From Patescibacteria group bacterium (GTDB lineage Bacteria > Patescibacteriota > Patescibacteriia > 2-02-FULL-49-11), in NCBI GenBank assembly GCA_041645165.1, contig JBAZQN010000006.1:4933-68932 (forward strand): 64,000 bases of DNA, written 5' to 3'. The notes under the pieces were generated by a model. That model searched no databases. It saw nothing but the letters and a program-made list of their open reading frames with translations, and was not told where the DNA came from. Position numbers and translations under genes: made by a program. Below are positions 5,296-62,484 of the stretch, in pieces. Position 1 is the first letter of the stretch; the number at the start of each line of letters is the position of its first letter.

Positions 5296-5402
5296 TATAT
5301 AACCAGACGCGAGTTGCCGCGTTTCGCCGCGAGGACTGTTTGAGTCCCGCGAAGCGGGACGAGTTCCGCAGCAAGAAAGGCGGCAACCGCGGCGGAATAG
5401 AA
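5296..5402. repeat. GC-rich leader element family F copy 1 (GCGAGGACTGT...GAGTCCCGCGAAGCGGGAC...GAGTTCCGCAGCAAGAAA)
   Basis: Shares GCGAGGACTGT, GTCCCG/CGGGAC hairpin and GAGTTCCGCAG(C)AAGAAA with 7076-7215. Partial similarity to 17030-17110. Confidence 0.5.
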
Positions 5403-7025: not shown

Positions 7026-7075
7026 AAAATGAAAGCGTAGAATAATGCAGTAGAACTAATATCCGAAACGAAGGT

Positions 7076-7215
7076 TAGTCAATTTTAGTGCGAGGACTGT
7101 CCGAGGGAGTCCCGATGAGCTATGGATGATTAGTATTGGAGGCGAAACGGGACGATGCCATAAGGCACCCGAGTTCCGCAGAAGAAAATTGGGCTAACCT
7201 GAGTGGGGATGGCGG
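7076..7215. repeat. GC-rich leader element family F copy 2 (with internal insertion)
   Basis: See 5296-5402. Shared blocks: gcgaggactgt, gagtcccg, cgggacga, gagttccgcagaagaaa. Confidence 0.5.
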
Positions 7216-7249
7216 ATCCGCCTGCCTTAAAACTATCAACACATTCTAT

Positions 7250-27971: not shown

Positions 27972-28153
27972 AATAACGAAAGAAATCGTCTCCTATTGGC
28001 GAGGTATTCGCATTCCAGACCATCTCGAGGCTTCGCGGGCATGGTCTCCGACTCCGCCGACTGGCGGATGTCGGAGGAGCGAAACCGAGAGCTGAGCGAC
28101 GCGAGCCACGCTGGGGCGAGCAAGAGTGTCTGGATATGCGGATACCGAGTGTC

Positions 28154-37660: not shown

Positions 37661-37667
37661 CCTTGCA

Positions 37668-38066
37668 TTACTTAATCCTCTCTTTAACCTTTTCTTTCCC
37701 TATTGCCTCATGCTCTCCTTTACCGAGTCGTGCCACTCTCTCTCCCAACACCAAAATGACATGGCTGGTCCTGCGGAGGATGGGATTTGCGCGGCCCATC
37801 GCCCGCGGAAAAGTCCTTTTCAGTGAAGGCCCCCCGTCAACGCGTATCTCCTTCACGTAAAGATTGATAGACTCAAGGTGAAAATTATGTTTCGCGTTCG
37901 CTACACCTGATTCCACAAGCTTTTTCAAAGGCTTTGCGCTATGATGCGCATCAAACGAAAGGAGCGCAATTGCTTTAGTGGCATCGATCCCTTTTATGGT
38001 CTCAGCCACCAGCCGCACCTTCCTTGGCGCCATCCGGAGATACCTTAATTTTGCAGTGATGTCCAT
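37668..38066 (-). CDS. rplV: 50S ribosomal protein L22
   Basis: MDITAKLRYLRMAPRKVRLVAETIKG…. Confidence 0.9.
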   Translation of the reverse strand: MDITAKLRYLRMAPRKVRLVAETIKGIDATKAIALLSFDAHHSAKPLKKLVESGVANAKHNFHLESINLYVKEIRVDGGPSLKRTFPRAMGRANPILRRTSHVILVLGERVARLGKGEHEAIGKEKVKERIK

Positions 38067-38170
38067 ACCCGCCTAAATTTTGCACCAGTCTGGTGCACTT
38101 AATTTCTTAATAACGATTACTCGACCTATTGTATCTCACTATTGTTCCTGCCCGCAAAACTTAGGCGGGC
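38064..38170 (-). repeat. family B TIR element copy B3. Left TIR supplies the rplV ATG; right TIR overlaps the rpsS stop codon.
   Basis: CATacccgcctaaattttgcaccagtctggtgcacttaatttc…cccgcaaaacTTAggcgggc. TTA at 38161-38163 is the rpsS TAA. Confidence 0.75.
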
Positions 38171-38496
38171 TTTTCTTTCTCGTCAGGTTTCGTTTGTGCG
38201 ACTTCTGTCTCCGCCTGTTTCGCTTCGATCTCTCTCTGCATGCGGCCGCCATGTCGCACAAATTTGCGGGTTAGGGAAAATTCCCCCAACCGATGCCCTA
38301 CCATATTCTCCACCACGAGGACTGGCACATGGATTTTGCCGTTATGCACGCCAAACACAAAGCCAACCATTTCCGGGGTAATGACGCTCGCGCGCGCCCA
38401 TGTTTTAATAACCGTTTTATCTCCGGATTTTAATGACTTCACGCGCTGCAAGAGTTTTTGATCTATGTAAGGCCCTTTTTTAAGTGAACGTGACAT
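38161..38496 (-). CDS. rpsS: 30S ribosomal protein S19 (with short K/E-rich C-terminal tail)
   Basis: [16 protein letters not shown]…HNGK…. Confidence 0.9.
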
Positions 38497-38602
38497 ACCC
38501 GCCTAAATTTTGCACATTCTTTAAGTGCATTAATTGATTAATAATTCATTACTCGACATAGAGAATTACCATTTTAGCTACCCGCAAAACTTAGGCGGGC
38601 AT
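38494..38602 (-). repeat. family B TIR element copy B4 abutting the rpsS start (divergent interior)
   Basis: catacccgcctaaattttgcacattctttaagtgcattaattg…cccgcaaaacttaggcgggcat. Confidence 0.7.
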
Positions 38603-38650
38603 ACTCCATAATTTTGGACTTTGGAATTTGGTTTTTGGATTATCAACATA

Positions 38651-39481
38651 TTAACTTCTTTTCTTAACGATAAACCTATTGGTCCATTTCCCTTTATTCC
38701 TGGTAGGAACGCCAAACGCGGGTTTCCCCCACGGAGTTTTGGGAAATTTCATGCCTATGGGATTGTGCCCTTCGCCTCCGCCGTGAGGATGGTCAACCGG
38801 GTTCATCGCCTTGCCGCGTACCTCTGGTCTCCACCCTAAATGACGCATACGGCCTGCCTTACCTAACCTCACTAAACGCTTATCAGGATTAGAAACTTGG
38901 CCCACTGAAGCGCATGCTTCTTTCGGAAAAAGCCGGATTTCCCCCGAGGGCAGCTTCACTTGGGCGAAATCCCCTTCCACGTTCATCACTATTGCATTCG
39001 TACCCGCGGATCGCACTATCTTTCCCCCTTGTCCAGGAACCAGTTCGATATTATACACCGGCTTACCGGTAGGGATATAAGAGAGGGGCATCCGGTTACC
39101 GGGGGTGGCTTCAATCTTGTGCATACTTGACATCACGGTAGTCCCCTGGTGAATATCCACCGGTGCGGGAATATAACGGCGTTCCTTATCAGGATATTCC
39201 ACCAATGCGATTGCGCTTGTCCGATTCGGGTCATATTCTACCGCAATCACTTTCGCAGGCACATCGAATCGGTCTTGGCGAAAATCAATGATCCGGTACA
39301 ACCGCTTATGGCCGCCTCCTCGATGCCGCACGGTGATTTTCCCTTGGGCATTCCTCCCCCCGCTCTTAGAAAGTGGGGTGACCAACGAACGCTCCGGCCG
39401 CTTGTCGGCAAAGCTTGTATGCGGAATGCTTGAGGCGCCGCGCCGTCCGGGACTTGTAGGTTTGTATAATTTTATAGCCAT
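38651..39481 (-). CDS. rplB: 50S ribosomal protein L2
   Basis: MAIKLYKPTSPGRR… and …GGGHKRLYR…. Confidence 0.95.
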   Translation of the reverse strand: MAIKLYKPTSPGRRGASSIPHTSFADKRPERSLVTPLSKSGGRNAQGKITVRHRGGGHKRLYRIIDFRQDRFDVPAKVIAVEYDPNRTSAIALVEYPDKERRYIPAPVDIHQGTTVMSSMHKIEATPGNRMPLSYIPTGKPVYNIELVPGQGGKIVRSAGTNAIVMNVEGDFAQVKLPSGEIRLFPKEACASVGQVSNPDKRLVRLGKAGRMRHLGWRPEVRGKAMNPVDHPHGGGEGHNPIGMKFPKTPWGKPAFGVPTRNKGKWTNRFIVKKRS

Positions 39482-39486
39482 ACCTT

Positions 39487-39610
39487 AATGGAAAATACCA
39501 AACTCTAAATCCTAAATAAATACAAAATTCGAAAATTCAAAAACAAAGTTTCGTCGTTTTTATTTTTTGGATTTGTTTAGAGTTTAGAATTTAGTGCTTA
39601 GGATTTATCA
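39487..39610. repeat. family E low-complexity palindromic spacer
   Basis: aaaataccaaactctaaatcctaaataaatacaaaattcg…ttggatttgtttagagtttagaatttagtgcttaggattt. Confidence 0.6.
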
Positions 39611-39615
39611 CTTTG

Positions 39616-40071
39616 CTACGTCTTTGACGCTGTTGCTAATACATCAATAGTTTTGCCTTTTGGGAGTGTTACTATCGCCTTTTTGTACGATTTTGTATAC
39701 CCATAGTGGCGCCCAAATCGAACTTTCTTGCCTTGATAATTTTGGATGTCAACGGATATTGGCCGCACCCCATAGGCTGCAGTGATTGCCTCTTTGACCG
39801 ATCCCTTGGTTGCGCGCGTATGCACGACAAACACATACTGGCCGAGCGCCGCACAGCGTGTAGACTTTTCTGACACCACAGGCTTCAAGAGCACTGAACC
39901 TCCCTCGCGATACAGAGGATAATCTCTGGGCGCCTTGGACGCTTTGTTACCCTTCTTCGTCTCAGGCTCCTGCGCTTTCTGCTCATCTTTTTGAGGCGCT
40001 TTGTCCTTCGGCGCAGCCCTCTGCACTACTTCATGTTTTCGCTTAAATCGGTCAAAAAAACCCATACTCAC
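39616..40071 (-). CDS. rplW: 50S ribosomal protein L23 (ORF carries a ~55-aa K/E-rich N-terminal extension; a GTG start with a GAGGGAGG Shine-Dalgarno (SD) sequence lies internally)
   Basis: Core …SVLLKPVVSEKSTR…FVVHTRATKGSVKEAI… An internal 'gagggaggttcaGTGctcttgaag' would give a canonical ~95-aa L23. Confidence 0.8.
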   Translation of the reverse strand: MSMGFFDRFKRKHEVVQRAAPKDKAPQKDEQKAQEPETKKGNKASKAPRDYPLYREGGSVLLKPVVSEKSTRCAALGQYVFVVHTRATKGSVKEAITAAYGVRPISVDIQNYQGKKVRFGRHYGYTKSYKKAIVTLPKGKTIDVLATASKT

Positions 40072-40077
40072 TAATGA

Positions 40078-40240
40078 TAAATCCTAAATACTAAACTCTA
40101 AATCCTAAATTGCTCCTGTTGGGTGCCGAACTTTGAATTTCGGTCATTAAGATTTATTTAGGATTTCTCCCGCTCCTTGATTTTTTCTTTCTAAGGTATG
40201 CGGGATCCCGCCTGAGCGGTGAGGATTTAGTGCTTTGTAT
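40078..40240. repeat. family E palindromic spacer plus family H GCGGGATCCCGCC motif
   Basis: taaatcctaaatactaaactctaaatcctaaattg…ggtcattaagatttatttaggattt, then ggtatGCGGGATCCCGCctgagcggtgagg. Confidence 0.55.
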
Positions 40241-40936
40241 TTATTCCTTCTTTTTACGCTTTACTCTGGTACGTTGCGCCAGGATTGGAATAACTCCCGG
40301 AACCATGAGAATCGTCCGGTATCCCGCCACATCTTCAATCGCGACATCATGAGCGCTCACGGTGCGCACGCCGGGCACATTCCTGCTGGCGCGTGTCATC
40401 ACTGCAGAGGACGCCTCCGGGAATACCACCAGCAACTCCTGCCTCTCTTTCGGCAATTGCACGTGCTTCAAATCCTCAATGTGTGCGCGCATTTCACGCA
40501 ACGCTGTCACAAACACCTTCGTTTTCGCTTCATTTAAAATAAATTCCTTTATCACCACGACATGCTTGGACTTGTATTGTGCGGAAAACGCCATTGCCAG
40601 CGCTTTTCGCGCGACCTTCACGTTCACCTTCCGCTCCCAATTGCGTTCATTCCGAGGGCCAAACACCACCCCGCCGCCTTTCCAAATGGGAGATCTGATA
40701 GAACCATGACGCGCGCGTCCGGTTCCTTTCTGGCGCCACGGTTTCTTCCCTCCCCCTCTCACTTCATCGCGCGTTTTGGTGTGTGCGGTTCCCGCGCGCG
40801 TGCTGGAAGCCCGGGAAATAAGCACCCTGTGAAGCAAGGATTTATCTACCTTCACGTCAAAAACCTCCGGAGGCAAATCAAGCTCCTCGGCAACGGTACC
40901 ATCTAAATTGTAGACCTTGGCCTTCTCCATATTCAC
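40241..40936 (-). CDS. rplD: 50S ribosomal protein L4
   Basis: MNMEKAKVYNLDGT…. Confidence 0.9.
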   Translation of the reverse strand: MNMEKAKVYNLDGTVAEELDLPPEVFDVKVDKSLLHRVLISRASSTRAGTAHTKTRDEVRGGGKKPWRQKGTGRARHGSIRSPIWKGGGVVFGPRNERNWERKVNVKVARKALAMAFSAQYKSKHVVVIKEFILNEAKTKVFVTALREMRAHIEDLKHVQLPKERQELLVVFPEASSAVMTRASRNVPGVRTVSAHDVAIEDVAGYRTILMVPGVIPILAQRTRVKRKKKE

Positions 40937-40949
40937 AATGCAAAATGTG

Positions 40950-41555
40950 TTAACCCTGAATAATAACCAAGCTGTTCCTCGCGCCCGGGAGCGCTCCTTT
41001 CACGTACATTAATCCTTGCTCCGGTTCAATTCTCACCACTTTCAATTTTTTCACGCTTACCCGCTCTCCCCCCATCCTCCCTGCCATCCTTGTTCCTTTA
41101 AAAACTCTTTGTACGCCGCCCGCGCCTATGCTCCCGGGCGCGCGGCCGCTGTCCTTATGGCCGTGGGAAGAAGGATGACCGTGAAAATGATGCCGCTTCA
41201 CGACGCCCGCGAATCCTTTGCCTTTTGAAGTGCCTGCCACTGACACCGTGTCACCCGGCTGAAAAATGTCAATCGGAATCTCTTTGCCGCGTGAAATATC
41301 CTTCGCTTCCTCTGCGGTACACTGGAAGGAGCGAAGATACTGGAAATGCGGAAGGTCTTTGAGATGCCCTTGCATTGGCTTGGTGGGATGTTTCACTTTC
41401 CCGTATCCAAGTTGCACCTCGACCGTGTCTTCTGTACGGTTTCTCACCTGCGTCACCGCGCATCCGGAAACATTCACCGCAGTGACCGGTACCGCAGTGC
41501 CATCTTCCTCAAAGAATCGCGTCATATTTAATTTTCTCCCTAAAATCACCTTCAT
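40950..41555 (-). CDS. rplC: 50S ribosomal protein L3
   Basis: MKVILGRKLNMTRFFEEDG… Annotated from the internal ATG. Confidence 0.9.
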   Translation of the reverse strand: MKVILGRKLNMTRFFEEDGTAVPVTAVNVSGCAVTQVRNRTEDTVEVQLGYGKVKHPTKPMQGHLKDLPHFQYLRSFQCTAEEAKDISRGKEIPIDIFQPGDTVSVAGTSKGKGFAGVVKRHHFHGHPSSHGHKDSGRAPGSIGAGGVQRVFKGTRMAGRMGGERVSVKKLKVVRIEPEQGLMYVKGALPGARNSLVIIQG

Positions 41556-41754
41556 AAACTGGTAACACAAACTAAAAACGAATACCACAACCAATACGTT
41601 CAGGGAAGCGGTATTCGCATCGCCAACGAAATACTGGTGTGTTGTGCCTTAAATGGAAACCTCATCTATTGCGCGTTAGTACTATAGGAGGAGGTAACCC
41701 CGCATTTGCGGGGTCGGTCCCCAGAATACCTAACGACAATTGTTTGAAAAGAAT

Positions 41755-42126
41755 CTACAACATTTTTATTTCGACATCTACGCCGGCGGGGAGATTCAAA
41801 TTCATGAGCTCGTCCACCGTCTTTGGTTTTGGATCTATAATATCGATAAGACGCTTATGAACCCTTATTTCGTACTGCTCCCGCGAATTCTTATGCACAA
41901 ACGCAGAACGAATAGTGGTATATTTCGTCTTTTCTGTCGGCAACGGCACCGGCCCTTTCAGCTGCGCGCCTGTCCTCTCTGCGGTTTCGATAATCGTGCG
42001 CGTCGACTGGTCCGCGATTTTATGGTCGTATGCCTTAATCTTAATCCGAATACGCTGCGGACCTTCCACTTCTTTCTCTACCGGCTTTGCCGTCTTTGCG
42101 TGAGTTGTAGGTTGTAATAGAGCCAT
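41755..42126 (-). CDS. rpsJ: 30S ribosomal protein S10 (possible ~20-aa N-terminal over-extension)
   Basis: …[31 protein letters not shown]…. Confidence 0.85.
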
Positions 42127-42152
42127 CGCCTAAGAAATCAGATCAACAACGT

Positions 42153-43355
42153 TTATTTATAAATCTTAATTACCGCACCCGCGCCTACCGTGTGCCCGCC
42201 TTCGCGGATCGCGAACCGCTGCTTCTCTTCCAATGCGACCGCTTTCTGAAGCACTACCTTAATCTGTACGGTATCTCCGGGCATCACCATTTCAGTGCCT
42301 TCAGGAAGGATGACCTCGCCGGTCACGTCAGTGGTGCGGATATAGAACTGCGGCTTGTATCCCTTGAAGAATGGCGTATGGCGGCCTCCCTCATCCTTGG
42401 AGAGGATATAGACTTGCCCTTCAAACTCGGTATGGGGCGTGGTGGTGCCGGGCTTGGCAATAACCTGCCCGCGCTCGACATCTTCTTTCTTCAAACCCCT
42501 CATAAGGCATCCTGCATTGTCGCCCGCGCGCCCTTCATCCAGCGACTTGTTGAACATTTCTATTCCCGTAATGACGGTCTTCTGGGTTTCTCTCAAACCA
42601 ACCACCTCGACCTCTTCGTTCACCTTAATAACGCCGCGCTCTACCCTCCCGGTCACGACGGTGCCGCGGCCTTCAATGGAAAAAATATCTTCGATCGGCA
42701 TAAGGAATGGCTGGTCAACCGCCCGCACCGGCTCCGGAATGTATTCATCAAGCGTCTCCGCGAGTTTGAGCACGGCTTTAAAATTCTCGCCGTCTTTATT
42801 GCCCGCGTTTGCCTCTTCAAGCGCTTTGAGCGCTGAGCCCCGTATGATGGGGGTCGTTTCCCCGGGGAATTCATATTTCTTGAGAAGTTCCCTTACCTCT
42901 TCTTCCACTAAATCCACCAAGTCTTTGTCGTCGACTTGGTCCACTTTATTCAAGAAAACAATGATATAGGGAACGCCCACTTGCCGCGCGAGCAAGATGT
43001 GTTCGCGAGTCTGGGGCATGGGGCCGTCAGCGGCGGATACTACAAGAATAGCGCCATCCATTTGGGCAGCGCCTGTAATCATGTTTTTCACGTAGTCCGC
43101 GTGTCCCGGGCAGTCAATGTGCGCGTAGTGACGCTTCGCGGTTTCATATTCCACGTGCGCGGTGTTGATGGTAATGCCGCGCGCTTTCTCTTCCGGCGCA
43201 TTGTCAATCTGATCAACACCCTTCTCCTGCGCGTTGAAACCTGCCACCTTCAGTACTTTCAGCATTGCGGCGGTCAAAGTCGTCTTGCCGTGGTCCACAT
43301 GGCCAATGGTGCCGACGTTGATATGTGGTTTTGTGCGTTCGTATTTGCCTGCCAT
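42153..43355 (-). CDS. tuf: elongation factor Tu
   Basis: [25 protein letters not shown]. Confidence 0.95.
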
Positions 43356-43399
43356 ACGTGTTTAAATTAATGATACTAATAAATTAATTCCCTACTTTA

Positions 43400-43500
43400 A
43401 TGTACTTCTGCGTGCATCTGCGTTACTTTCTGCGTATATCTGCTTCTATGCCTCATAAGATGCGGAAGAACACTGATAATGACGCAGAATAACGCAGAAA
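43400..43500. promoter_or_regulatory. phased TCTGCGT / ACGCAGA repeat array upstream of tuf
   Basis: cttctgcgtgcatctgcgttactttctgcgtat…gacgcagaataacgcagaaag at ~10–12-bp spacing. Same heptamer as upstream of rplU. Confidence 0.4.
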
Positions 43501-43689
43501 GATTGAAATTCCGATACAATAAATATTATGTTTCAAGACCTAAAGCGCTCGTCATAAAGAGAGTCTTTAAATACAGCCCTGATTGTAGCAAGATATTACC
43601 ATTAATGCAAGGGTGTAATTTCCACGGTCTGGCGTTTTATTTAAATAAAGTAAATATTTCTCTAGAATTAGCCAAGAAATACTAAACAC

Positions 43690-43850
43690 TCACTAACTCT
43701 CTTTTACCAGTAATTGCTCACTTACTTAAACCTATAAGCGAAGGAATACCAATTTTTCGAGGATTTAGGCGTATCAAGCGGCTAGGTCGCGTCCGCAGAA
43801 AAATTGTGTATTCCTGAGTGGGAAAGAACCTGAGTGAGCAATTACCCTCT
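43690..43850. repeat. tuf–fusA intergenic element bounded by a 12-bp inverted repeat
   Basis: …ccagtaattgctcacttac … gagtgagcaattaccc…. Confidence 0.35.
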
Positions 43851-45953
43851 CCTCTTCACCCCGCTTCTTGTTTCCTGGATAGCCAGTGCGATCTGCTTGG
43901 GCACTTCTTCATAATGGGAAAATTCCATGGTGTTGGAAGCGCGCCCCTGTGTCATTGAGCGCAGGGTGGTCGCATAGCCGAACATCTCCGCCAGAGGGAC
44001 GAGCGCATCGATAATCTTCACGCCGCTGCGGTCCCGCATCTCTTTGATCTGTCCGCGCTTCGCATTCAAATCTCCTATCACCTCGCCCAGAAATTCTTCC
44101 GGCGTTATTACTTCCACTTTCATGATAGGTTCGAGCAACACGGGCAACGCTCTTTTGCACGCTTCCTGGAACGCGAATGATCCCGCGAGTTTGAATGCCG
44201 CTTCCGATGAATCGACTTCGTGGTACGAACCGTCATACACGGTGACCGTCATGTCAATCACGGGATATCCCGCGACGACGCCGTTCTCAAGCGCTTCTTT
44301 CACGCCCTTCTCAATGGCGGGGATATACTCGCGCGGAATGGACGCTCCTTTTATTTCATCGATGAACTCGTAGCCCTTCCCCCGCTCTTGCGGCGCCACT
44401 CTCAGCCAGCAATGGCCGTATTGCCCGCGCCCGCCTGTCTGCCGGATGTATTTCCCTTCCCCTTCCGCCTCATCTTTGATCGTTTCTTTATATGCCACCT
44501 GCGGCTTGCCCACGGTCGCGCCGACACTGAACTCGCGCTTCATTCTTTCCACAATAATTTCAAGATGCAGCTCACCCATGCCTGAAATAATGGTCTCGAG
44601 CGTTTCCTCGTCTGTCCTGATGCGGAAGGTGGGATCTTCCTCCGCAAGACGCTGGAGCGCGATGCCCATTTTTTCCTGATCCACTTTCGTCTTCGGCTCG
44701 ATCGCGACAGAGATAACCGGCTCGGGAAATACAATGGACTCGAGCAATATAGGATGGTCCGGATCGCACAAGGTATGGCCGGTAGAAGTGCTCTTCAATC
44801 CCACCGCCGCGGCGATCTCTCCTGCAAACACTTCATCCACATCTTCCCGGTGATTCGCATGGAGCCGCACGATCCTGCTGATGCGCTCGCGCTCTCCATT
44901 GCTTACATTGAGGACGTATGATCCTGAGGTCAGGTGCCCGGCATACACGCGGAAAAAAGTGAGTTTTCCCACATAGGGGTCAGCCGCAACCTTAAAGGCA
45001 AGCGCAGTAAACGGCTCATCATCCGATGCCTTGCGTGAAACCGCGGCGCCGGTCTTGGGATCAGATGCCACTAAATCAGGCACATCCAAAGGAGAAGGAA
45101 GATATTCCACGATTGCGTCAAGAAGGAATTGCACTCCTTTATTTTTCAGCGCAGAACCGCAAAGGATGGGGATAATCTTGCACTGGATCACTGCCTTTCT
45201 CAATACTGCTTTTAATTCCCCCAAGGCGGGCTCCTTGCCTTCCAAGTACTGGCGCATGAGGGTATCGTCATTTTCCACTATTGCCTCAATGAGCGCGTGG
45301 CGCGCGGTTTCCGCAACTTTGCTTAATTCAGCGGGGATTTCTTCTTCAGTAATTTCCTTACCCCATTCGTCATGGTACAGGTATGCCTTGCGAGTAAGGA
45401 GATCAATGATGCCTTTGAATTTTTCCTCATCTCCGATGGGGATCTGGAGCGGGTACGCATTCTTGGCGAGCCTTGTGTGTATGCTCTTCACGTCCGCCCA
45501 AAAATCCGCGCCCATCCGGTCGAGCTTATTGATGAAACACATGCGGGGCACATTGTAGCCGTCCGCATAACGCCAGTTCGTCTCGCTTTGCGGTTCCACT
45601 CCTGCCACGCCGTCAAACACCACGACGGCGCCGTCAAGCACCCTCAAACTTCTCTTCACTTCCACGGTAAAGTCAATGTGGCCCGGAGTATCGATGAGGT
45701 TCAGCCGGTGCTTATTGCCAGGATCGGACGTCGGCGCCCAGAAACAAGTCGTCGCGGCAGCGGTAATGGTGATGCCGCGCTCCTTCTCCTGCTCCATCCA
45801 GTCCATTTCAGCCGCGCCTTCATGGACCTCCCCGATCTTATGCTTCTTGCCAGTATAAAACAGCACGCGTTCAGACACGGTGGTTTTTCCCGCGTCAATG
45901 TGGGCGATAATGCCGAAATTTCTCGTTTTCTCTAATGAATATTCCCGTGGCAT
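43842..45953 (-). CDS. fusA: elongation factor G
   Basis: [17 protein letters not shown], domains II–V. Confidence 0.95.
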
Positions 45954-46161
45954 ACCCGCCTAAATTTTGCACTTCATTAAGTGCATAATATGGTAATAAG
46001 GAATGAATCGACCAAATGAATCTATACCTAGTGCCGTTACAATTTAATTCGGCTATAACTGATATGCTTATTTTACCATCTGTATTGAAATACTAATCTC
46101 TTGCGTGTCGCAAAACTTAATTGTAACGGTACTAGTTCATGCCCGCAAAACTTAGGCGGGC
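45951..46161 (-). repeat. family B TIR element copy B5 (long, ~211 bp) abutting the fusA start
   Basis: catacccgcctaaattttgcacttcattaagtgcataat … gttcatgcccgcaaaacttaggcgggc. Confidence 0.7.
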
Positions 46162-46618
46162 GAATATGAAGTTTGATGGTGAAGCTCCACGGCTTTATAG
46201 CCGTGGCATCTTCACGTTCTTCGGCGGAACCCGCCGAAGCGTATCCGCCTTCGCTTGGAGGCTACGGCGGATTACCCGCATCGCATTCATCCACCCCGCC
46301 ATGGCGGGGTGGCTTTCTGCGGAGGCGGGTAAAAAAATAAATCCTCCCCTTCTCTCTCCCTCCTTCTCCTTCCGCAATCGTGCGTGAGCGCATGAACCTT
46401 CACTTGATGATCGGGGTAAACTGATTTTCGCAGCGATTTTTCTTCAGCGAGAGCTGCGCTTGCGAAACCCTCCGCAACCGGCCCCAGCACGGTCTCTGAT
46501 GTCAGTCGGAGTGGGGCTGGTGAGGCGGAGTGCGGTCCCGCGCTGGCGGGACCGACACGTGTTTCGCAATGTGCAACTCGAGCGACTGCGTGAGTCCATC
46601 ATCGGCAATCCCGAGCGT
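46162..46618. other. GC-rich hairpin-dense non-coding region between rpsG and fusA (candidate structured RNA or element remnant)
   Basis: Stems ccacggctttatagccgtgg, cggcggaacccgccgaag, cccgccatggcgggg. No credible ORF. Conventional str operons have a ≤100-bp rpsG–fusA gap. Confidence 0.4.
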
Positions 46619-47089
46619 CTACCCATAGCGGGCGAAATGCGCAAACGCGCGGTTCGCTTCCGCCATTCTCTGCATATCCATTTTCTTTTTCATGGCCGCG
46701 CCCTCACCCTTCGCCGCCTCCTGCAGCTCTTCCAGAAGTTTCTTGTGCATCGGTTTTCCTTTCCGGGCTCTTGAGGCATCAATAATCCACCGGAACGCGA
46801 GCGTGTTCCTGCGGTCGGGATTTACGGGAAATGGAATTTGATAGTTGGCGCCCCCAATCCTGCGCGGCCGTATTTCCAGCGCCGGCCCTACATTCTTCAT
46901 GGCCATATCAAACACCGTGAGCGGGTCAGCGCCTGCGCTTTTAATGGCATCAAACGTGCGGTAGAGCACATTTTGCGCGGTTGATTTCTTCCCGCGCCGC
47001 ATGAGGTAATTGATGAATTTCGCAATCGTCACCGATCCAAACTTTGGATCCGGCGCAATTTTTCTCTTTGGTGCTTTCTTTCCACGCAT
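46619..47089 (-). CDS. rpsG: 30S ribosomal protein S7
   Basis: MRGKKAPKRKIAPDPKFGS…ANRAFAHF…. Confidence 0.9.
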   Translation of the reverse strand: MRGKKAPKRKIAPDPKFGSVTIAKFINYLMRRGKKSTAQNVLYRTFDAIKSAGADPLTVFDMAMKNVGPALEIRPRRIGGANYQIPFPVNPDRRNTLAFRWIIDASRARKGKPMHKKLLEELQEAAKGEGAAMKKKMDMQRMAEANRAFAHFARYG

Positions 47090-47094
47090 AATAA

Positions 47095-47195
47095 CTAAAT
47101 CAAAATGCAAAATGCAAATCTCAAAATGATGGTATTACGTCCCGCTGAGGCGGGACTCCATAATTTTGATTTTTGGACTTTGATTTTTGGATTAG
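47095..47195. repeat. family D hairpin element copy D4
   Basis: aaatcaaaatgcaaaatgcaaatctcaaaatgatggtattacGTCCCGCtgagGCGGGACtccataattttgatttttggactttgatttttgg. Confidence 0.65.
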
Positions 47196-47200
47196 CATTT

Positions 47201-47626
47201 TCATTTCTTCGCCTTCTCCCGCTTCGCGCCGTACCGCGACCTTCCCTGTTTCCTCGCCTGCACGCCGCCGGTATCATAGACTCCCCGCACAATATGATAG
47301 CGCACCCCGGGCAAATCCTTTACCCTGCCGCCGCGCACCAATACAATGGAGTGTTCCTGCAAATTATGCCCCTCGCCGGGGATGTACACAGTCGCTTCTT
47401 CGCCGTTCGAGAGCCTCACGCGGGCGATCTTCCGTAAAGCAGAGTTCGGTTTCTTGGGCGTCATGGTGGTCACCTTGAGGCACACCCCGCGCTTATAGGG
47501 GTTTCCTTTATCAAGCGTTTTCCTTCTGCGCGTAAGCACGTTAAACACCGTCTGCATGGCAGGCGATTTGGTCTTGCGCTTGAGGCTCTTCCGCCCTTGG
47601 CGGACTAATTGGTTAATGGTCGGCAT
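47201..47626 (-). CDS. rpsL: 30S ribosomal protein S12
   Basis: [14 protein letters not shown]…[10 protein letters not shown]…. Confidence 0.95.
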
Positions 47627-47741
47627 AAAAAATCGGTATAAGACGATAAGTCCTATACGTCCTTATCATATGACCTATACGACTTAAGTTACTTATTACG
47701 CTTTATAATTTACCAATTCTTTTAAAAAGTGTCAAACTGCC

Positions 47742-48344
47742 TTACCCGGCAATTCCTGTGAAGAGACGGAAAAGGAATGCCATAAGCGGAAGAAGCGCGC
47801 TCGCGAAATAAAATATAAATAAAATAAAAAGCACGATGCCATACCGCTCAAAAGTGTGCTCCATCCCCCGCCAGGAATCCGGAAGGAGCGCGAATAATAT
47901 TTTCGAACCGTCAAGAGGAGGGATGGGCACGAGGTTAAACACCGCCAGCATCACATTCGCCCATACGCCTACGCTAAGTATTTCCAAAAAGGAGGATGAG
48001 GGAAGGAAACGGACTACCATGCCAAGGAACGCCGCGATTATGAAATTGGATGCAGGGCCTGCTATCCCGACAAGCGCGGGTCCCCATTTCTTATCTTTTA
48101 GATTATAGGGATTATAAGGGACTGGCTTGGCATAGGCGAATAAAAACCGCCCGCCCGTGGTAAACCACGCGATAAGCGGCAAAAGAATTGAACCCATGGG
48201 ATCAATATGCACGATTGGGTTAAGTGTAAGCCTTCCCAAATCCTTGGCGGTCGGATCGCCAAGCTCATTCGCCATCCATCCATGGCTGTACTCATGGATG
48301 ATCGCGCCCATGATGATGAAGATGAGAAACGCAATATCGGTCAT
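47742..48344 (-). CDS. site-2 protease family (M50) intramembrane metalloprotease
   Basis: HEYSHG (HExxH), …NLVPIPPLDGSKIL… (LDG motif), ~5 TM. Confidence 0.75.
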   Translation of the reverse strand: MTDIAFLIFIIMGAIIHEYSHGWMANELGDPTAKDLGRLTLNPIVHIDPMGSILLPLIAWFTTGGRFLFAYAKPVPYNPYNLKDKKWGPALVGIAGPASNFIIAAFLGMVVRFLPSSSFLEILSVGVWANVMLAVFNLVPIPPLDGSKILFALLPDSWRGMEHTFERYGIVLFILFIFYFASALLPLMAFLFRLFTGIAG

Positions 48345-48584
48345 ATCTCTACTCAGTTACCATTCCAATTCCGATTGTCATTCCAGACCGGGATCTGGAA
48401 TCCAGACAAAAAATAAGCAAACAAAACGATGTTTCATTTAACCGTTTAGCATTGCAGCCAATGTAACAATGTAACTATTTAACAGTTTAACAATTTCATT
48501 CTCAAGGTGTATATCAATCCTACCACTTCTCATGCAATCTCTACAAATTTGCCTTTTACCGCCAATTATGTTAACCTACCTTCA

Positions 48585-57291: not shown

Positions 57292-58887
57292 ATGAACACC
57301 AAATACTTTTTATACGCTCGCAAATCAACCGAAGACGAAGAACGGCAAGTGATGAGTATTGAAGCGCAGCTTACGGAGTTGGCTGAATTTGCCAAGCGAG
57401 AAAATATTGAAATTGCCGAAACATTTATTGAATCAAAAAGCGCAAAGAAGCCAGGGCGAGAAGTGTTTAACGAGATGATGAGCAGAGTTCAGGAAAGTAA
57501 AACTACGGTGGGACTTCTCGCGTGGCACCCGGATCGTCTCGCCCGCAACAGCGTTGATGGCGGTTTGATAATTTACTCCATAGACACCGCCAAAATCGCT
57601 TCTTTGCGCTTTCCCACATTTTGGTTTGAGCCAACTCCGCAAGGGCTTTTTATGCTCCAAGTCGCCTTTGGCCAATCAAAATATTATTCCGACAATTTGT
57701 CGGAAAATGTAAAGCGCGGGATTCGCCAAAAACTCAGGCGGGGGGAGTGGCCCGGCCTTGCGCCGTTTGGGTATGTGAACAATCCGAAAACACGAACGAT
57801 TGAGCCAGACCCAACAAAAGCGAGAGTTATCAAAAAAGCGTTTGAAGAATACGCGCAAGGCCGTCATACACTTTTGTCTTTAGGTGAACGCCTGAGTTTT
57901 TGGGGCGTGGTGAGCGGAACCGGAAAACCGCTTTGCAAAGCAACGCTCCAACGAATGCTTACCAATAAAGCGCATCTCGGTTTAATTGTCCATAACGACG
58001 AAACTTACGAGGGCGGTTTTCCAGCAATTGTTTCCAGAGCGACTTTTGAGAAAGTGCAGGAAGTGTTAAAGAGCCGAGCCAAGCCGCGTCATTCTAAAAA
58101 GCGGCATAACTTCCCATTTACCGGACTGCTTACTTGCGGCGAGTGCGGCGCGGCTATTACGGCACAATACGCGCATGGACACGGTGGAACTTACAAATAC
58201 TATCGTTGCACCAAACGGCTTGGCTCGTGTTCGCAAAGTTATTTGCGCGAGGACTTACTCACCGAACAACTGAAAATAGAAATCTCAAAAGTCGCTCTCT
58301 GCGAAGACTCGAAAGAAAAGATGCTGGCGCAAGTGGAAGTGTGGGAAAAAGAAAATATCCAGTCTTCGCAATCTTTCGCCCAAAATTTGGAAAAGGAAAT
58401 CAAGGAAACCGAACAAAAACTTGATAGATTGGTAAACGCCTTTTTGGACGGAAGCATAGAAAAAGAAACCTACCTTACCAAAAAGGATGAACTCATCACA
58501 ACCAAAACAGACCTCCAGCAAAGGAAGTCTGATTTTGGGCGAAAGGGAAACAATTGGATCGAACCTTTGCGCGAATGGATTTTAGCCGCTCACCACGCGG
58601 AAAAACTGGCTTCGTCAAACGAATTTGATGAAATCAAATCGTTTGTTGAAAAAATTGGAACGAACCGCCGCCTGCTCTCCAAAAAAGTCGGCTGGGATTG
58701 GTCGGGCGAATGGCGGATTGTGGCGGAAAATCAGAATAAAATCCCCCCAGCGCGCGAGCGAAGCGAGCGCGTACCTTCTTCCGAAAACTGTCAATGTCTA
58801 ACTTGGTCGGGGCGGGGAGAATCGAACTCCCGCTACAAGCACCCCATGCTCGCGTACTACCATTATACTACGCCCCGTAAATTGTAG
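57292..58887 (+). CDS. large serine recombinase (resolvase/invertase N-domain + recombinase domain + zinc ribbon)
   Basis: YARKSTEDEERQ…SIEAQ (catalytic Ser), …HPDRLARN…, Zn ribbon CGECGAAI…YYRC. The last ~28 codons read through tRNA-Pro (antisense), so the true stop is probably earlier or overlapping. Confidence 0.85.
   Translation: MNTKYFLYARKSTEDEERQVMSIEAQLTELAEFAKRENIEIAETFIESKSAKKPGREVFNEMMSRVQESKTTVGLLAWHPDRLARNSVDGGLIIYSIDTAKIASLRFPTFWFEPTPQGLFMLQVAFGQSKYYSDNLSENVKRGIRQKLRRGEWPGLAPFGYVNNPKTRTIEPDPTKARVIKKAFEEYAQGRHTLLSLGERLSFWGVVSGTGKPLCKATLQRMLTNKAHLGLIVHNDETYEGGFPAIVSRATFEKVQEVLKSRAKPRHSKKRHNFPFTGLLTCGECGAAITAQYAHGHGGTYKYYRCTKRLGSCSQSYLREDLLTEQLKIEISKVALCEDSKEKMLAQVEVWEKENIQSSQSFAQNLEKEIKETEQKLDRLVNAFLDGSIEKETYLTKKDELITTKTDLQQRKSDFGRKGNNWIEPLREWILAAHHAEKLASSNEFDEIKSFVEKIGTNRRLLSKKVGWDWSGEWRIVAENQNKIPPARERSERVPSSENCQCLTWSGRGESNSRYKHPMLAYYHYTTPRKL
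58661..58809. repeat. perfect 149-bp inverted repeat, right copy (IR-R). Encodes the C-terminal ~48 aa of the recombinase and includes the last 6 nt of tRNA-Pro.
   Basis: cgaaccgccgcctgctctccaaaaaagtcggctgggattggtcgggcgaatggcgg…ctgtcaatgtctaacttggtcg. Confidence 0.85.
58804..58877 (-). tRNA. tRNA-Pro (anticodon GGG)
   Basis: CGGGGCGTAGTATAATGGTAGTACGCGAGCATGGGGTGCTTGTAGCGGGAGTTCGATTCTCCCCGCCCCGACCA. Confidence 0.8.
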
Positions 58888-58987
58888 CCCCGAAATCTAC
58901 TTCGGGGCCATGCATGCCTAACTACCGCCTTGATATCACACTGTGATATCAAGACCTACACCCCGTCAAATTGTAGTCTCGAAAACT
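58866..58987. repeat. att-like region: ~30-bp direct repeats (58868-58896 and 58946-58975) flanking a perfect 25-bp palindrome (CTTGATATCACACTGTGATATCAAG)
   Basis: ctacgccccgtaaattgtagccccgaaa vs ctacaccccgtcaaattgtagtctcgaaa. DR1 overlaps the 5' end of tRNA-Pro. Confidence 0.6.
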
Positions 58988-59673
58988 AAACTACTCAATG
59001 ACTTTATGACTTATTGACTTATTGACTAACACAAATGGCTCCAAAGGCTATTAGTAGGCAAGTCAGTCCCTCGCAAGTCAATCGGGCCACGTCTTCCATC
59101 AGCTGGCCTCGCACGAGGCTCGGTCAATCCGATACAAGATTCTCTCCCAAAGGAGAAAGGCCGCTGGTTGCTCTCAACCCGATACCGCAGTATCAAGGAA
59201 ATCAAGCTGACCGACGAAAATTACTTGACGAACCACTTAATCCTACTTATGAGCGCTAAAAGGAGCCACCTCTATTATACCACACCGTCAAGGCTCTTCA
59301 AGGTAAACAATTCCCTCAAACTCCAGCTTCGTAAGGTAGAGAAAATGTCCCCTCCTCTACGAAGGACTGCACTGCGAGTCAGAAGCGGTGCAGAGGGAGG
59401 TCTCCTGGGGATAACTGGACTGGACACCTTACTCACTATCCCCTACCATAGAAATACTATATGCAAATAACACCCAACCAAACCATGAAGATGAACAAGA
59501 TGAAGATGTCCTACCCTCAAGGGACTGGTTGGTGTTATGCATAAGGTTTAAATAAAAATTAGGAATACACCTCCAGCCCCAGAGCTGGTTTTTTTGTTTT
59601 TACATAATCACAGAAGCCAGTTTAGGCCATTGATACGCCAAAAACACAAAACGTTCATTGACAAGGAGAAGGA

Positions 59674-61920: not shown

Positions 61921-62484
61921 AGTGGAGAATCTAGAAGCTGCCCGATCATCCGATCGGGCATCCGGTCGAATGACCGGATGAATCTAGAATAAGGATAGCA
62001 TAAAAAAGAAAAAGGATGCAACGTCAAGAAAAAATTCAGCCCTGCTACGCAAAGTGGGCTGTACTGTAGAGAGATACTCAGTTGCTTTCCTAGGTTGCGG
62101 TAGCAGGGTCTTTCGACGGGCGGGAGGCACTGGCCCCCCAAATTTTTGCTCCGAACGGAACGGTGGTGCTTGTCAAATAACAGCACCACGGGTGGTCATG
62201 CTCCGTCCGGAGCGCTGCCTCGGCGAATGTTCACATTCACAACAGGTGCACACTAACCTGTTGCATCAACTCCGAGGACAATCTATGTTAAGGCCACATC
62301 CTGCGAGCAAGGGCTCGCAATCTATGGCTCGAATATTCTGGTGGCCACCAGATGACTAACCCTTTACGAACTTTCAGCTCGTCATTGGTGACCCACCAGC
62401 AGTGTTAAGGAGGAGCAAATTTAATTTTATCATCCCTATCCTAGCATATCCACTTACCTTGTCAAATTCCTTAACCTGACACCC

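Follow-up and report, generated by a model that had tools for sequence, protein, structure and literature searches.

In a 64,000-nucleotide (nt) stretch of a Patescibacteria group bacterium contig (JBAZQN010000006.1, positions 4,933 to 68,932; hereafter the window), the ribosomal protein gene rpsG and the EF-G gene fusA of the str operon are separated by a spacer of 665 nt. This spacer is probably a non-coding mosaic of lineage-specific, hairpin-forming intergenic repeats, rather than a conserved, discrete RNA gene or a leader dedicated to fusA. A first-pass annotation of the same DNA had offered a structured non-coding RNA (ncRNA), a processed leader or decayed element DNA as explanations; the third of these fits best, while neither a discrete ncRNA gene nor a dedicated leader is favored. 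It had also allowed that the region could be degenerate repeat DNA present in many copies, and this is essentially what was found, as homologous structured spacer elements occur elsewhere in the window and in related genomes. Relatives were gathered by metagenome and protein-guided retrieval, and their loci carry L numbers below. Read from rpsG towards fusA, with alpha, beta and B as our names for repeat families, the spacer is made up as follows:

46586-46618, minus strand: 5' end of the spacer element, beginning at the rpsG stop codon (pairwise alignment to the L168 element, alignment A2)
46445-46585, minus strand: beta domain (D1), a three-way junction with a closing stem of ~17 bp and the apical hairpin UCCCGCCAGCGCGGGA at 46533-46554
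46374-46444, minus strand: weakly structured linker, resembling a degenerate alpha 3' core
46329-46373, minus strand: polypurine tract, then UUUAUUUUUUUAC (blastn against L167, alignment A2)
46179-46328, minus strand: 150-nt block of four consecutive GC-rich hairpins, extra relative to L167 (alignment A2)
46162-46178, minus strand: short tail CATCAAACTTCATATTC(G), collinear with CATCAATTTCACATTCG of L167 (alignment A2)
45954-46161, minus strand: long copy of the B element, 208 nt (211 with the ATG), fold z = -5.8
46028-46135, within B, no strand assigned: nested element of 108 nt with 22-nt terminal inverted repeats CTAGTGCCGTTACAATTTAATT / AACTTAATTGTAACGGTACTAG and TA flanks

On the observed composition, homologies, alpha-family covariation and presence or absence among strains, we propose that four parts were assembled here. 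The first would be a decayed structured element with an intact beta, degenerate remnants of the alpha core and, at the end, a polypurine tract with a U-run. The second, the four-hairpin block, would have been inserted between TTTTTTTAC and ATCAA relative to L167; the third would be the 17-nt tail, belonging to the backbone; and the fourth would be B, abutting the fusA ATG and carrying a nested 108-nt insertion that resembles a miniature inverted-repeat transposable element (MITE).

The limits of the spacer are set by the open reading frames (ORFs) of the str operon:

47201-47626, minus strand: rpsL
46619-47089, minus strand: rpsG (ribosomal protein S7), ORF with ATG start, 156 amino acids (aa), upstream boundary of the spacer
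43842-45953, minus strand: fusA (EF-G), 703 aa, downstream boundary of the spacer
42153-43355, minus strand: tuf

From these coordinates the gap is 45954-46618, and the expanded junction described at first is thereby borne out. That the two genes normally lie almost side by side holds for the median of 56 nt among 75 genomes of the candidate phyla radiation (CPR), and fails for 11 of the 75, in which the gap exceeds 400 nt, mostly through unrelated inserted ORFs; the junction is a recurrent insertion hot spot and not strictly tight. The host itself is a Patescibacteria (CPR) genome of the Parcubacteria type. A product identical to that of rpsG matched the Pfam family Ribosomal_S7, the rpsG product is 47-64% identical to S7 of the 75 CPR genomes, and EF-G reaches at most 75% identity to species representatives labelled Uhr-, Veblen-, Kerfeld- and Falkowbacteria.

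The part of the spacer next to rpsG (46162-46618, 457 nt) has a GC content of 0.58, against ~0.35 in most spacers, and it is as hairpin-dense as the first-pass annotation had it. Four perfect hairpins, defined by a stem of at least 8 bp and a loop of 3-6 nt, lie at 46187-46206, 46219-46239, 46291-46312 and 46533-46554, where 500 dinucleotide shuffles gave a mean of 0.02 and a maximum of one; the first three are those quoted in the first-pass annotation. The whole 64 kb holds 17 such hairpins, so defined, including these four. Folding of the stretch gives minimum free energy (MFE) z-scores of -6.3 for the minus strand and -6.8 for the plus strand. The stems in this copy are perfect, and G-U pairs show no clear strand bias, with 10 on the plus and six on the minus strand; these features seem to fit young DNA palindromes better than a long-selected RNA. 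The four-hairpin block folds with -86.2 kcal/mol (z = -7.0) and has no second copy in the window or in the retrieved loci. Its hairpins differ in sequence and have only CCGCC/GGCGG cores in common, and the GC-rich part as a whole lacks terminal inverted repeats. A 36-nt likeness of one hairpin to L026 was judged to be due to chance.

Homologs of the beta domain (MFE -74.1 kcal/mol, z = -5.4) were found with a covariance model, R1, built from 46445-46585. It matches L168, L084 and L173 at 7097-7242 with 31.8 bits (E ~1e-5 to 2e-4), directly downstream of fusA. These three loci represent a relative with 78% S7 identity, of the "Uhrbacteria RIFCSPLOWO2_01_FULL_55_36" type. The 16-nt apical hairpin UCCCGCCAGCGCGGGA is identical, and the outer helices differ in sequence with pairing kept, i.e. 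by compensatory changes. The likeness extends beyond beta, as 294 nt (46325-46618) align to the L168 element with z = 8.1 over dinucleotide shuffles, from the first bases past the stop codon to the polypurine tract, which has a similar counterpart in L168. In the first block, TCGGGATTGCCGA (46586-46618) is common to the L168 element (TCGCGATTGGCGA) and loosely to L167; in the linker, AUCGCUGCGAAAAUCAGUUUACCCCG aligns with L168 AUCGGCUCGAACAGCUUGCCCCG, and UCAUGCG..CUCACGCACG can be aligned too; and the stretch after beta, taken by itself, gives z = 4.7 in the pairwise alignment. A further, weaker copy lies in the window:

27997-28152, minus strand: beta-like domain in the adk-map spacer (R1 15.7 bits, fold z = -4.5, alignment A8)

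By blastn, this copy is 66% identical to the L168 element over 110 nt (E = 4e-4). We define beta as a ~140-nt three-way junction with a closing stem of 17-19 bp and an apical (G/A)UCCCGCCAGCGCGGGA(C/U), sense to the flanking genes. The segment 46445-46585 belongs to it as the founding copy of three lineage copies, the definition being provisional. In L168-L173, a DDE transposase gene (DDE_5 / DDE_Tnp_1; e.g. L168 7482-8471) follows directly after the alpha/beta element downstream of fusA, and the rpsG-fusA spacer of the same loci holds an orphan ORF of 72-110 aa that is frameshifted or variably called among near-identical contigs.

A closer relative, L167 (S7 87% and fusA DNA 81% identical), has an rpsG-fusA spacer of 277 nt, which shares two blocks with the window in the same order. 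The first is the polypurine tract (32 nt, 46342-46373) with UUUAUUUUUUUAC (46329-46341), 91% identical over 35 nt by blastn; it is the only clearly conserved block, and among 177 loci the motif occurs in L167 and L081 only. The second is the 17-nt tail ATCAAnTTCAnATTCG. Sequence upstream of the polypurine tract does not align significantly to the L167 spacer (z = 0.47), and homology to L167 is therefore confined to the polypurine/U-run block and the tail. L167 reads TTTTTTTAC|ATCAA where the window has the 150-nt block, and after the tail the window continues with B, L167 with an AT-rich tail.

The sister strains L082, L083, L166 and L178-L182 are closer still, with rpsL-rpsG DNA 90-94% and fusA DNA 93-95% identical to the window. 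In these, the rpsG-fusA spacer is 137 nt long (L082, L083, L166, L178-L181) or 112 nt long (L182). Both versions are AT-rich and, over their full length between stop and start codon, unrelated to each other and to the window. Each forms a single long hairpin (z = -4.2 and -7.1), and so does the rpsL-rpsG spacer of the window (z = -7.2). Altogether, five spacer alleles occur among six lineages, of 665, 137, 112, 277 and 445-465 nt. Judged by this turnover of sequence, the spacer does not belong with conserved fusA leaders or ribosomal-protein autoregulatory leaders. Since spacers are replaced between sister strains and B is sited elsewhere in them, the str-operon spacers behave as exchangeable hairpin cassettes, and the 665-nt allele would be dispensable because the sister strains manage with unrelated hairpin spacers of 112-137 nt.

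Similar structures line the ribosomal-protein cluster at 30000-48500, where nearly every intercistronic spacer (e.g. 47090-47200) is 90-200 nt long and forms one long imperfect hairpin. One arm is A/C-rich and the other U/G-rich, the tip is often GUCCCGC-N4-GCGGGAC, and the fold z-scores range from -4 to -7. Many of these spacers have no obvious Shine-Dalgarno sequence before the ATG, which is unusual for a "streamlined" CPR genome.

The alpha family gives the clearest covariation. The following copies were identified:

43734-43821, minus strand: alpha element in the fusA-tuf spacer, directly 3' of the fusA stop (R2 29 bits, R3 52.6 bits)
7064-7206, minus strand: alpha element (blastn to the L167 rpsG-fusA spacer)
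5305-5392, minus strand: minimal alpha element of ~88 nt with apical GUCCCGC-UUCG-GCGGGAC (R2 34 bits, R3 88 bits)
L167 4494-4634 and L178 5023-5117: alpha copies in relatives

Orthologous alpha elements stand in the fusA-tuf spacer of L178-L182. The central L167 spacer matches window 7080-7194 at 76% identity over 116 nt (blastn, E = 2e-16), and the common structure of L167 and 7064-7206 has 35 pairs, six of them compensatory and none broken (RNAalifold). In the alignment of five distinct copies, which had been fitted to the model, 98.5% of the cells are paired and 15 pairs are changed on both sides, a result that none of 500 shuffles reached, and slid controls pair in 32-49% of the cells. 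The architecture consists of a closing helix P1, a 5' core UUGCUGCGGAACUCG, a 3' core CUCAAACAGUCCUCGC and a variable apical domain. This domain takes the form of a minimal GUCCCGC-N4-GCGGGAC hairpin or of two hairpins, and in L168 that of the beta junction. Copies range from 88 to 143 nt, covary strongly in the closing helix, are always sense to their neighbors and were found in a narrow clade only; the covariance models R2 and R3 detected no alpha in ~170 more distant CPR loci. Within 46162-46618, the same two models gave no match even with filters off, and only degenerate alpha remnants align to the L168 alpha/beta composite. Beta is kept and the alpha helix and cores are lost, which makes the rpsG-fusA copy a decayed composite of alpha and beta.

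A hairpin motif, CCCGC-N(2-12)-GCGGG, is common to these repeats: the AT-rich spacers have it at their tips, alpha and beta contain it, and so does the B arm. The window contains 16 instances against 1.1 expected, all 16 within the 21% that is non-coding, and two fall in the rpsG-fusA region. In L013, a relative with 70% EF-G identity, a 1.2-kb gene between rpsG and fusA is bracketed by TCCCGC-N-GCGGGA hairpins (2794-2809 and 3968-3983).

The part of the spacer next to fusA is the long B element, which extends over 208 nt without the ATG, in agreement with the 211-bp element fused to the fusA start that the first-pass annotation described. Its arms, CCCGCCTAAATTTTGC / GCAAAACTTAGGCGGG, have 10 matches in the window where 0.2 are expected, forming five elements:

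33905-34008, 34559-34662, 38067-38170 and 38497-38600, minus strand: the four other B copies (arm matches)
L166 3266-3367 and L182 4826-4931: B copies in other spacers of sister strains

Every copy ends one base before a start codon, in the window that of a minus-strand gene and here that of fusA, and the ends are invariant (GCCCGCCTAAGTTTTGCGGG ... GTGCAAAATTTAGGCGGGT). In L166, B lies between rpsL and rpsG, and its 5' arm CCC GCC TAA provides the last codons and the stop of rpsL; in L182 it stands in front of rplC, in the rpsJ-rplC spacer. The nested 108-nt element was recognized by comparison with canonical 108-nt B copies and is single-copy in the window and the loci. As further observations, the 20-nt ends of B are invariant around a variable interior, with arms of 16 nt; the 3' subterminal hairpin covaries (GCACCAG/CTGGTGC, GCACTT/AAGTGC, GCACTT/AGGTGC); (G)TATG precedes four of seven copies, creating a TATG...TATG direct repeat and a mini-ORF, ATG CCC GCC TAA; and in all copies the 5' arm carries G at the place where the 3' arm carries A, so that the long stem has a G-U pair on the sense strand only.

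Taken together, the 665-nt version is best seen as accumulated repeat DNA, because the stems are perfect, the G-U pairs without clear strand preference, the alpha core gone and the sister strains without this spacer; it is probably not an essential new RNA gene. Given the uniformly sense orientation of the copies, and with neither a promoter-like site nor a convincing terminator-like one detected, the whole spacer is presumably co-transcribed with the str operon, and its mRNA would be a string of stable stem-loops. Repeat structures of the REP, BOX and Correia type can block exonucleases or attract RNase III and thereby shift the ratio of neighboring cistrons. By analogy with these repeats, the stem-loops may at most modulate processing, stability or the coupling of rpsG and fusA. 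Transposition in trans or recombination would allow the elements to spread and to be swapped among spacers, and their net effect at the rpsG-fusA junction may well be dispensable.

Several points weigh against accumulated repeat DNA. The stability of the folds is far beyond chance, and beta retains a complex junction with compensatory changes relative to L168, a pattern that selection on RNA structure would equally be expected to give. The independent alpha and beta copies are sense to the flanking genes in ~5/5 cases, and G-U pairs on the sense strand are conserved across the alpha alignment; both observations hint at an RNA-level function of the family. The copy number is modest, with three alpha and two beta in 64 kb, the search for copies having covered the 64-kb window and the str-operon neighborhoods of relatives, and no transposase or mobility mechanism was identified for the elements. 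The E-values of the home-made covariance models are rough. Finally, L167 is the one genome by which the four-hairpin block appears as an insertion, and a deletion in L167 could equally account for the difference. Because of the strong structure and the compensatory changes in related copies, an RNA-level role for the repeat family stays conceivable.

The most durable alternative, although we regard it as rather unlikely, is that the spacer works in cis, as a functional module of structured RNA within the str operon, possibly a site for RNase III or other processing, a barrier protecting rpsL-rpsG against 3' exonucleases, or an insulator that uncouples fusA translation. The strong folding of the spacer, the compensatory changes in alpha and beta helices and the sense orientation of all copies agree with such a module, as does the fact that every str-operon spacer in every strain examined is a long hairpin regardless of sequence. 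The polypurine/U-run block, 91% conserved with L167 amid unalignable surroundings, can be read in the same way. However, the spacer is replaced by unrelated 112-137-nt hairpins where the flanking genes are 93-95% identical, this copy has lost the alpha core, and its G-U pairs have no clear strand bias.

A broader version of this idea seems to us a long shot: alpha, beta, B and the AT-rich hairpin cassettes would together constitute a functional, lineage-specific system of intercistronic RNA modules or, alternatively, alpha would represent a small RNA of a new class, catalytic or ligand-binding. All of the cassettes have GUCCCGC-N4-GCGGGAC-type hairpins at the tip or as a core, and all are sense to the genes; they would be swapped between spacers and strains. 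Long transcripts of ribosomal-protein operons might then be divided at these cassettes, as sites of processing or insulation, into units that are translated separately; as B stops one base short of the AUG, such units could be almost leaderless. The rpsG-fusA spacer would in that case be an over-grown but working example of a cassette.

It is very unlikely that an independent small RNA gene, sense or antisense, lies between rpsG and fusA. An island that is GC-rich and structured, set among AT-rich intergenic DNA, would suit one, and so would the CU-rich/polypurine tract conserved with L167; a plus-strand RNA could expose the CU-rich stretch (UCCUCCCCUUCUCUCUCCCUCC) and, from its sequence, might pair with Shine-Dalgarno sequences. 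Against this, no sigma-70-like promoter was found in the gap, and the sole terminator-like match (46099-46115) lies inside B, with none in 46162-46618. The island is also missing from the sister strains, and the homologous elements span the distance from stop codon to start region, which is spacer-like and not gene-like. Comparison of the GC-rich region with Rfam covariance models, which the first-pass annotation had proposed as a check, returned no known RNA family: Rfam 15 at gathering score yielded six tRNAs only in the whole window, the best matches for 45800-46800 at E <= 10 scored 14-18 bits against thresholds of 30-100, and the L167 spacer had no match. Scans of the region for tRNA or tmRNA and for tandem repeats found none. 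A group I or group II intron remnant, a retron and the S7 autoregulatory site were dropped for want of any support.

The remnant of a protein-coding gene, inserted at the hot spot and since decayed, is scarcely credible, even though the GC content resembles that of coding DNA, inserted genes with intact ORFs are often hosted at the junction (11/75 relatives) and a stop-free frame of 103 codons runs through 46290-46598. The best codon-usage score of any frame in the GC-rich part is 0.04, whereas real genes average 0.27 and their 5th percentile lies at 0.09, and the first-pass annotation was right to see no credible ORF. Six-frame translation gives 13 pieces that run for 30 aa or more without a stop, and the ten of them compared with Pfam had no match; a concatenated six-frame query had none among 5.8 billion proteins, and an exact look-up of seven gap ORFs in a public protein collection revealed none ever called as a gene. 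The ORFs that relatives carry at this junction showed no resemblance to the region by tblastx or blastn, and the homology to non-coding structured elements explains the sequence; the region is almost certainly not a protein-coding gene or pseudogene. A frameshifted C-terminal extension of rpsG and an alternative genetic code were likewise dropped, as nothing supported them. In phage and plasmid collections, blastn of the 457 nt gave a single 30-nt match, attributable to chance, and exact-pattern scans of viral contigs gave no match to two of the hairpins and three single matches to the B arm, about the chance level.

An assembly artefact or chimera between rpsG and fusA is equally hard to credit: a contig from a separate Logan assembly (SRR8449827, L081) is 100% identical over 46305-48408, which confirms 46305-46618 next to rpsG, and although it stops at 46305 inside a 22-nt palindrome, leaving 45954-46304 to one assembly with no confirmation from a second, contigs of this fragmented Logan assembly break in other spacers too, the backbone is collinear with L167 on both flanks of the hairpin block, and the joint of B to fusA is the same as its joints to four other genes.

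Among known systems, the repetitive extragenic palindromic (REP) sequences and bacterial interspersed mosaic elements (BIMEs) of Enterobacteria and Pseudomonas are short GC-rich extragenic palindromes, often clustered in operons and transcribed, and REPs stabilize upstream mRNA. The GUCCCGC-N4-GCGGGAC hairpin is likewise a short palindrome, strictly extragenic and strongly over-represented, and the four-hairpin block resembles a BIME cluster, but the hairpins of the block differ in sequence and lack a conserved GTAG-type flank. No ORF resembling a REP-associated tyrosine transposase was noticed in the window, whose proteins were viewed without a systematic scan. Correia elements (NEMIS) of Neisseria are co-transcribed, and their hairpins are cut by RNase III. 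With these and with MITEs, B and its nested insert share terminal inverted repeats and nested insertion, and B is multicopy and occupies other sites in sister strains. It differs in always ending exactly one base before a start codon, and the TATG...TATG direct repeat accompanies 4/7 copies; we know of no parent transposase of B. Mycobacterial interspersed repetitive units are intercistronic operon repeats whose ends form the flanking stop and start codons, as in B with CCC GCC TAA at the 5' end and ATG at the 3' end. They are, however, tandem direct repeats with tiny coupled ORFs, while B is a single palindromic unit with ATG CCC GCC TAA as its sole possible ORF.

The S7 autoregulatory site of the Escherichia coli str operon is also a structured intercistronic RNA of the same operon, located between rpsL and rpsG, whereas the spacer in the window lies downstream of rpsG and is not conserved across strains. 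Palindrome-associated transposable elements derived from IS200/IS605 have subterminal hairpins, no terminal inverted repeats or target-site duplications, and insert 3' of a tetranucleotide such as TTAC, with TnpA/TnpB encoded in the genome. The four-hairpin block follows TTTTTTTAC and is without terminal inverted repeats; a single copy and a single genome for comparison bear on this, and neither TnpA nor TnpB was noticed. Similar in kind are BOX, RUP and SPRITE of Streptococcus pneumoniae, small modular intergenic repeats of a narrow clade that are judged to be largely parasitic, affecting expression as a side effect (Croucher et al. 2011, PMC3049150). Like them, the repeats described here have extensive predicted RNA structure, vary in presence between close strains and appear to be co-transcribed with their neighbors, as the pneumococcal repeats are (PMC3049150). 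They differ in having no sequence relationship, in a copy number that for the window comes from 64 kb alone, and in that alpha, beta, B and the AT-rich modules fill the spacers of ribosomal-protein operons from stop to start codon.

Small, interspersed, modular, structure-forming intergenic repeats are thus an object of known kind, and the families alpha, beta and B are new. None has a match in Rfam, and a search of the literature on Patescibacteria repeats returned nothing specific. What is unusual is that the spacers of CPR ribosomal-protein operons are filled from stop to start codon and exchanged in their entirety between near-identical strains. The genomes of CPR/Patescibacteria pass for small and streamlined, yet nearly all spacers of the core translation operons in this lineage are hairpin cassettes of 90-665 nt, and strains with flanking genes 93-95% identical carry different ones. 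If this extends genome-wide, active and undescribed families of interspersed structured repeats would be present in an uncultivated phylum and could serve as strain-level markers. The question is also raised whether polycistronic ribosomal-protein mRNAs are processed or insulated at such hairpins. For annotation, the caution is that an island between genes can be long, GC-rich and highly structured without being a new ncRNA gene.

Two other non-coding stretches of the window are conspicuous. The first, 61921-62484 (minus strand, 564 nt, between two minus-strand genes), has a GC-corrected MFE residual of z -3.5, the second strongest among 424 sampled windows. At its minus-strand end, a stem ccctgctac...gtagcaggg is followed by TTTTTT, so that it resembles a discrete RNA gene, and Rfam gave no match even at E <= 1. 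The second, 58888-59673 (786 nt), has several perfect hairpins and adjoins a tRNA (58807-58877) and a 531-aa recombinase-like ORF (57292-58887); with this tRNA and probable serine recombinase beside it, it may be the edge of an integrated element. Lastly, the EF-G match spans ~3.0-3.1 kb instead of 2.1 kb in many CPR genomes (L003, L005, L012, L018, L019, L022, L024 and others), which suggests insertions of ~1 kb inside fusA, such as inteins or other inserts.

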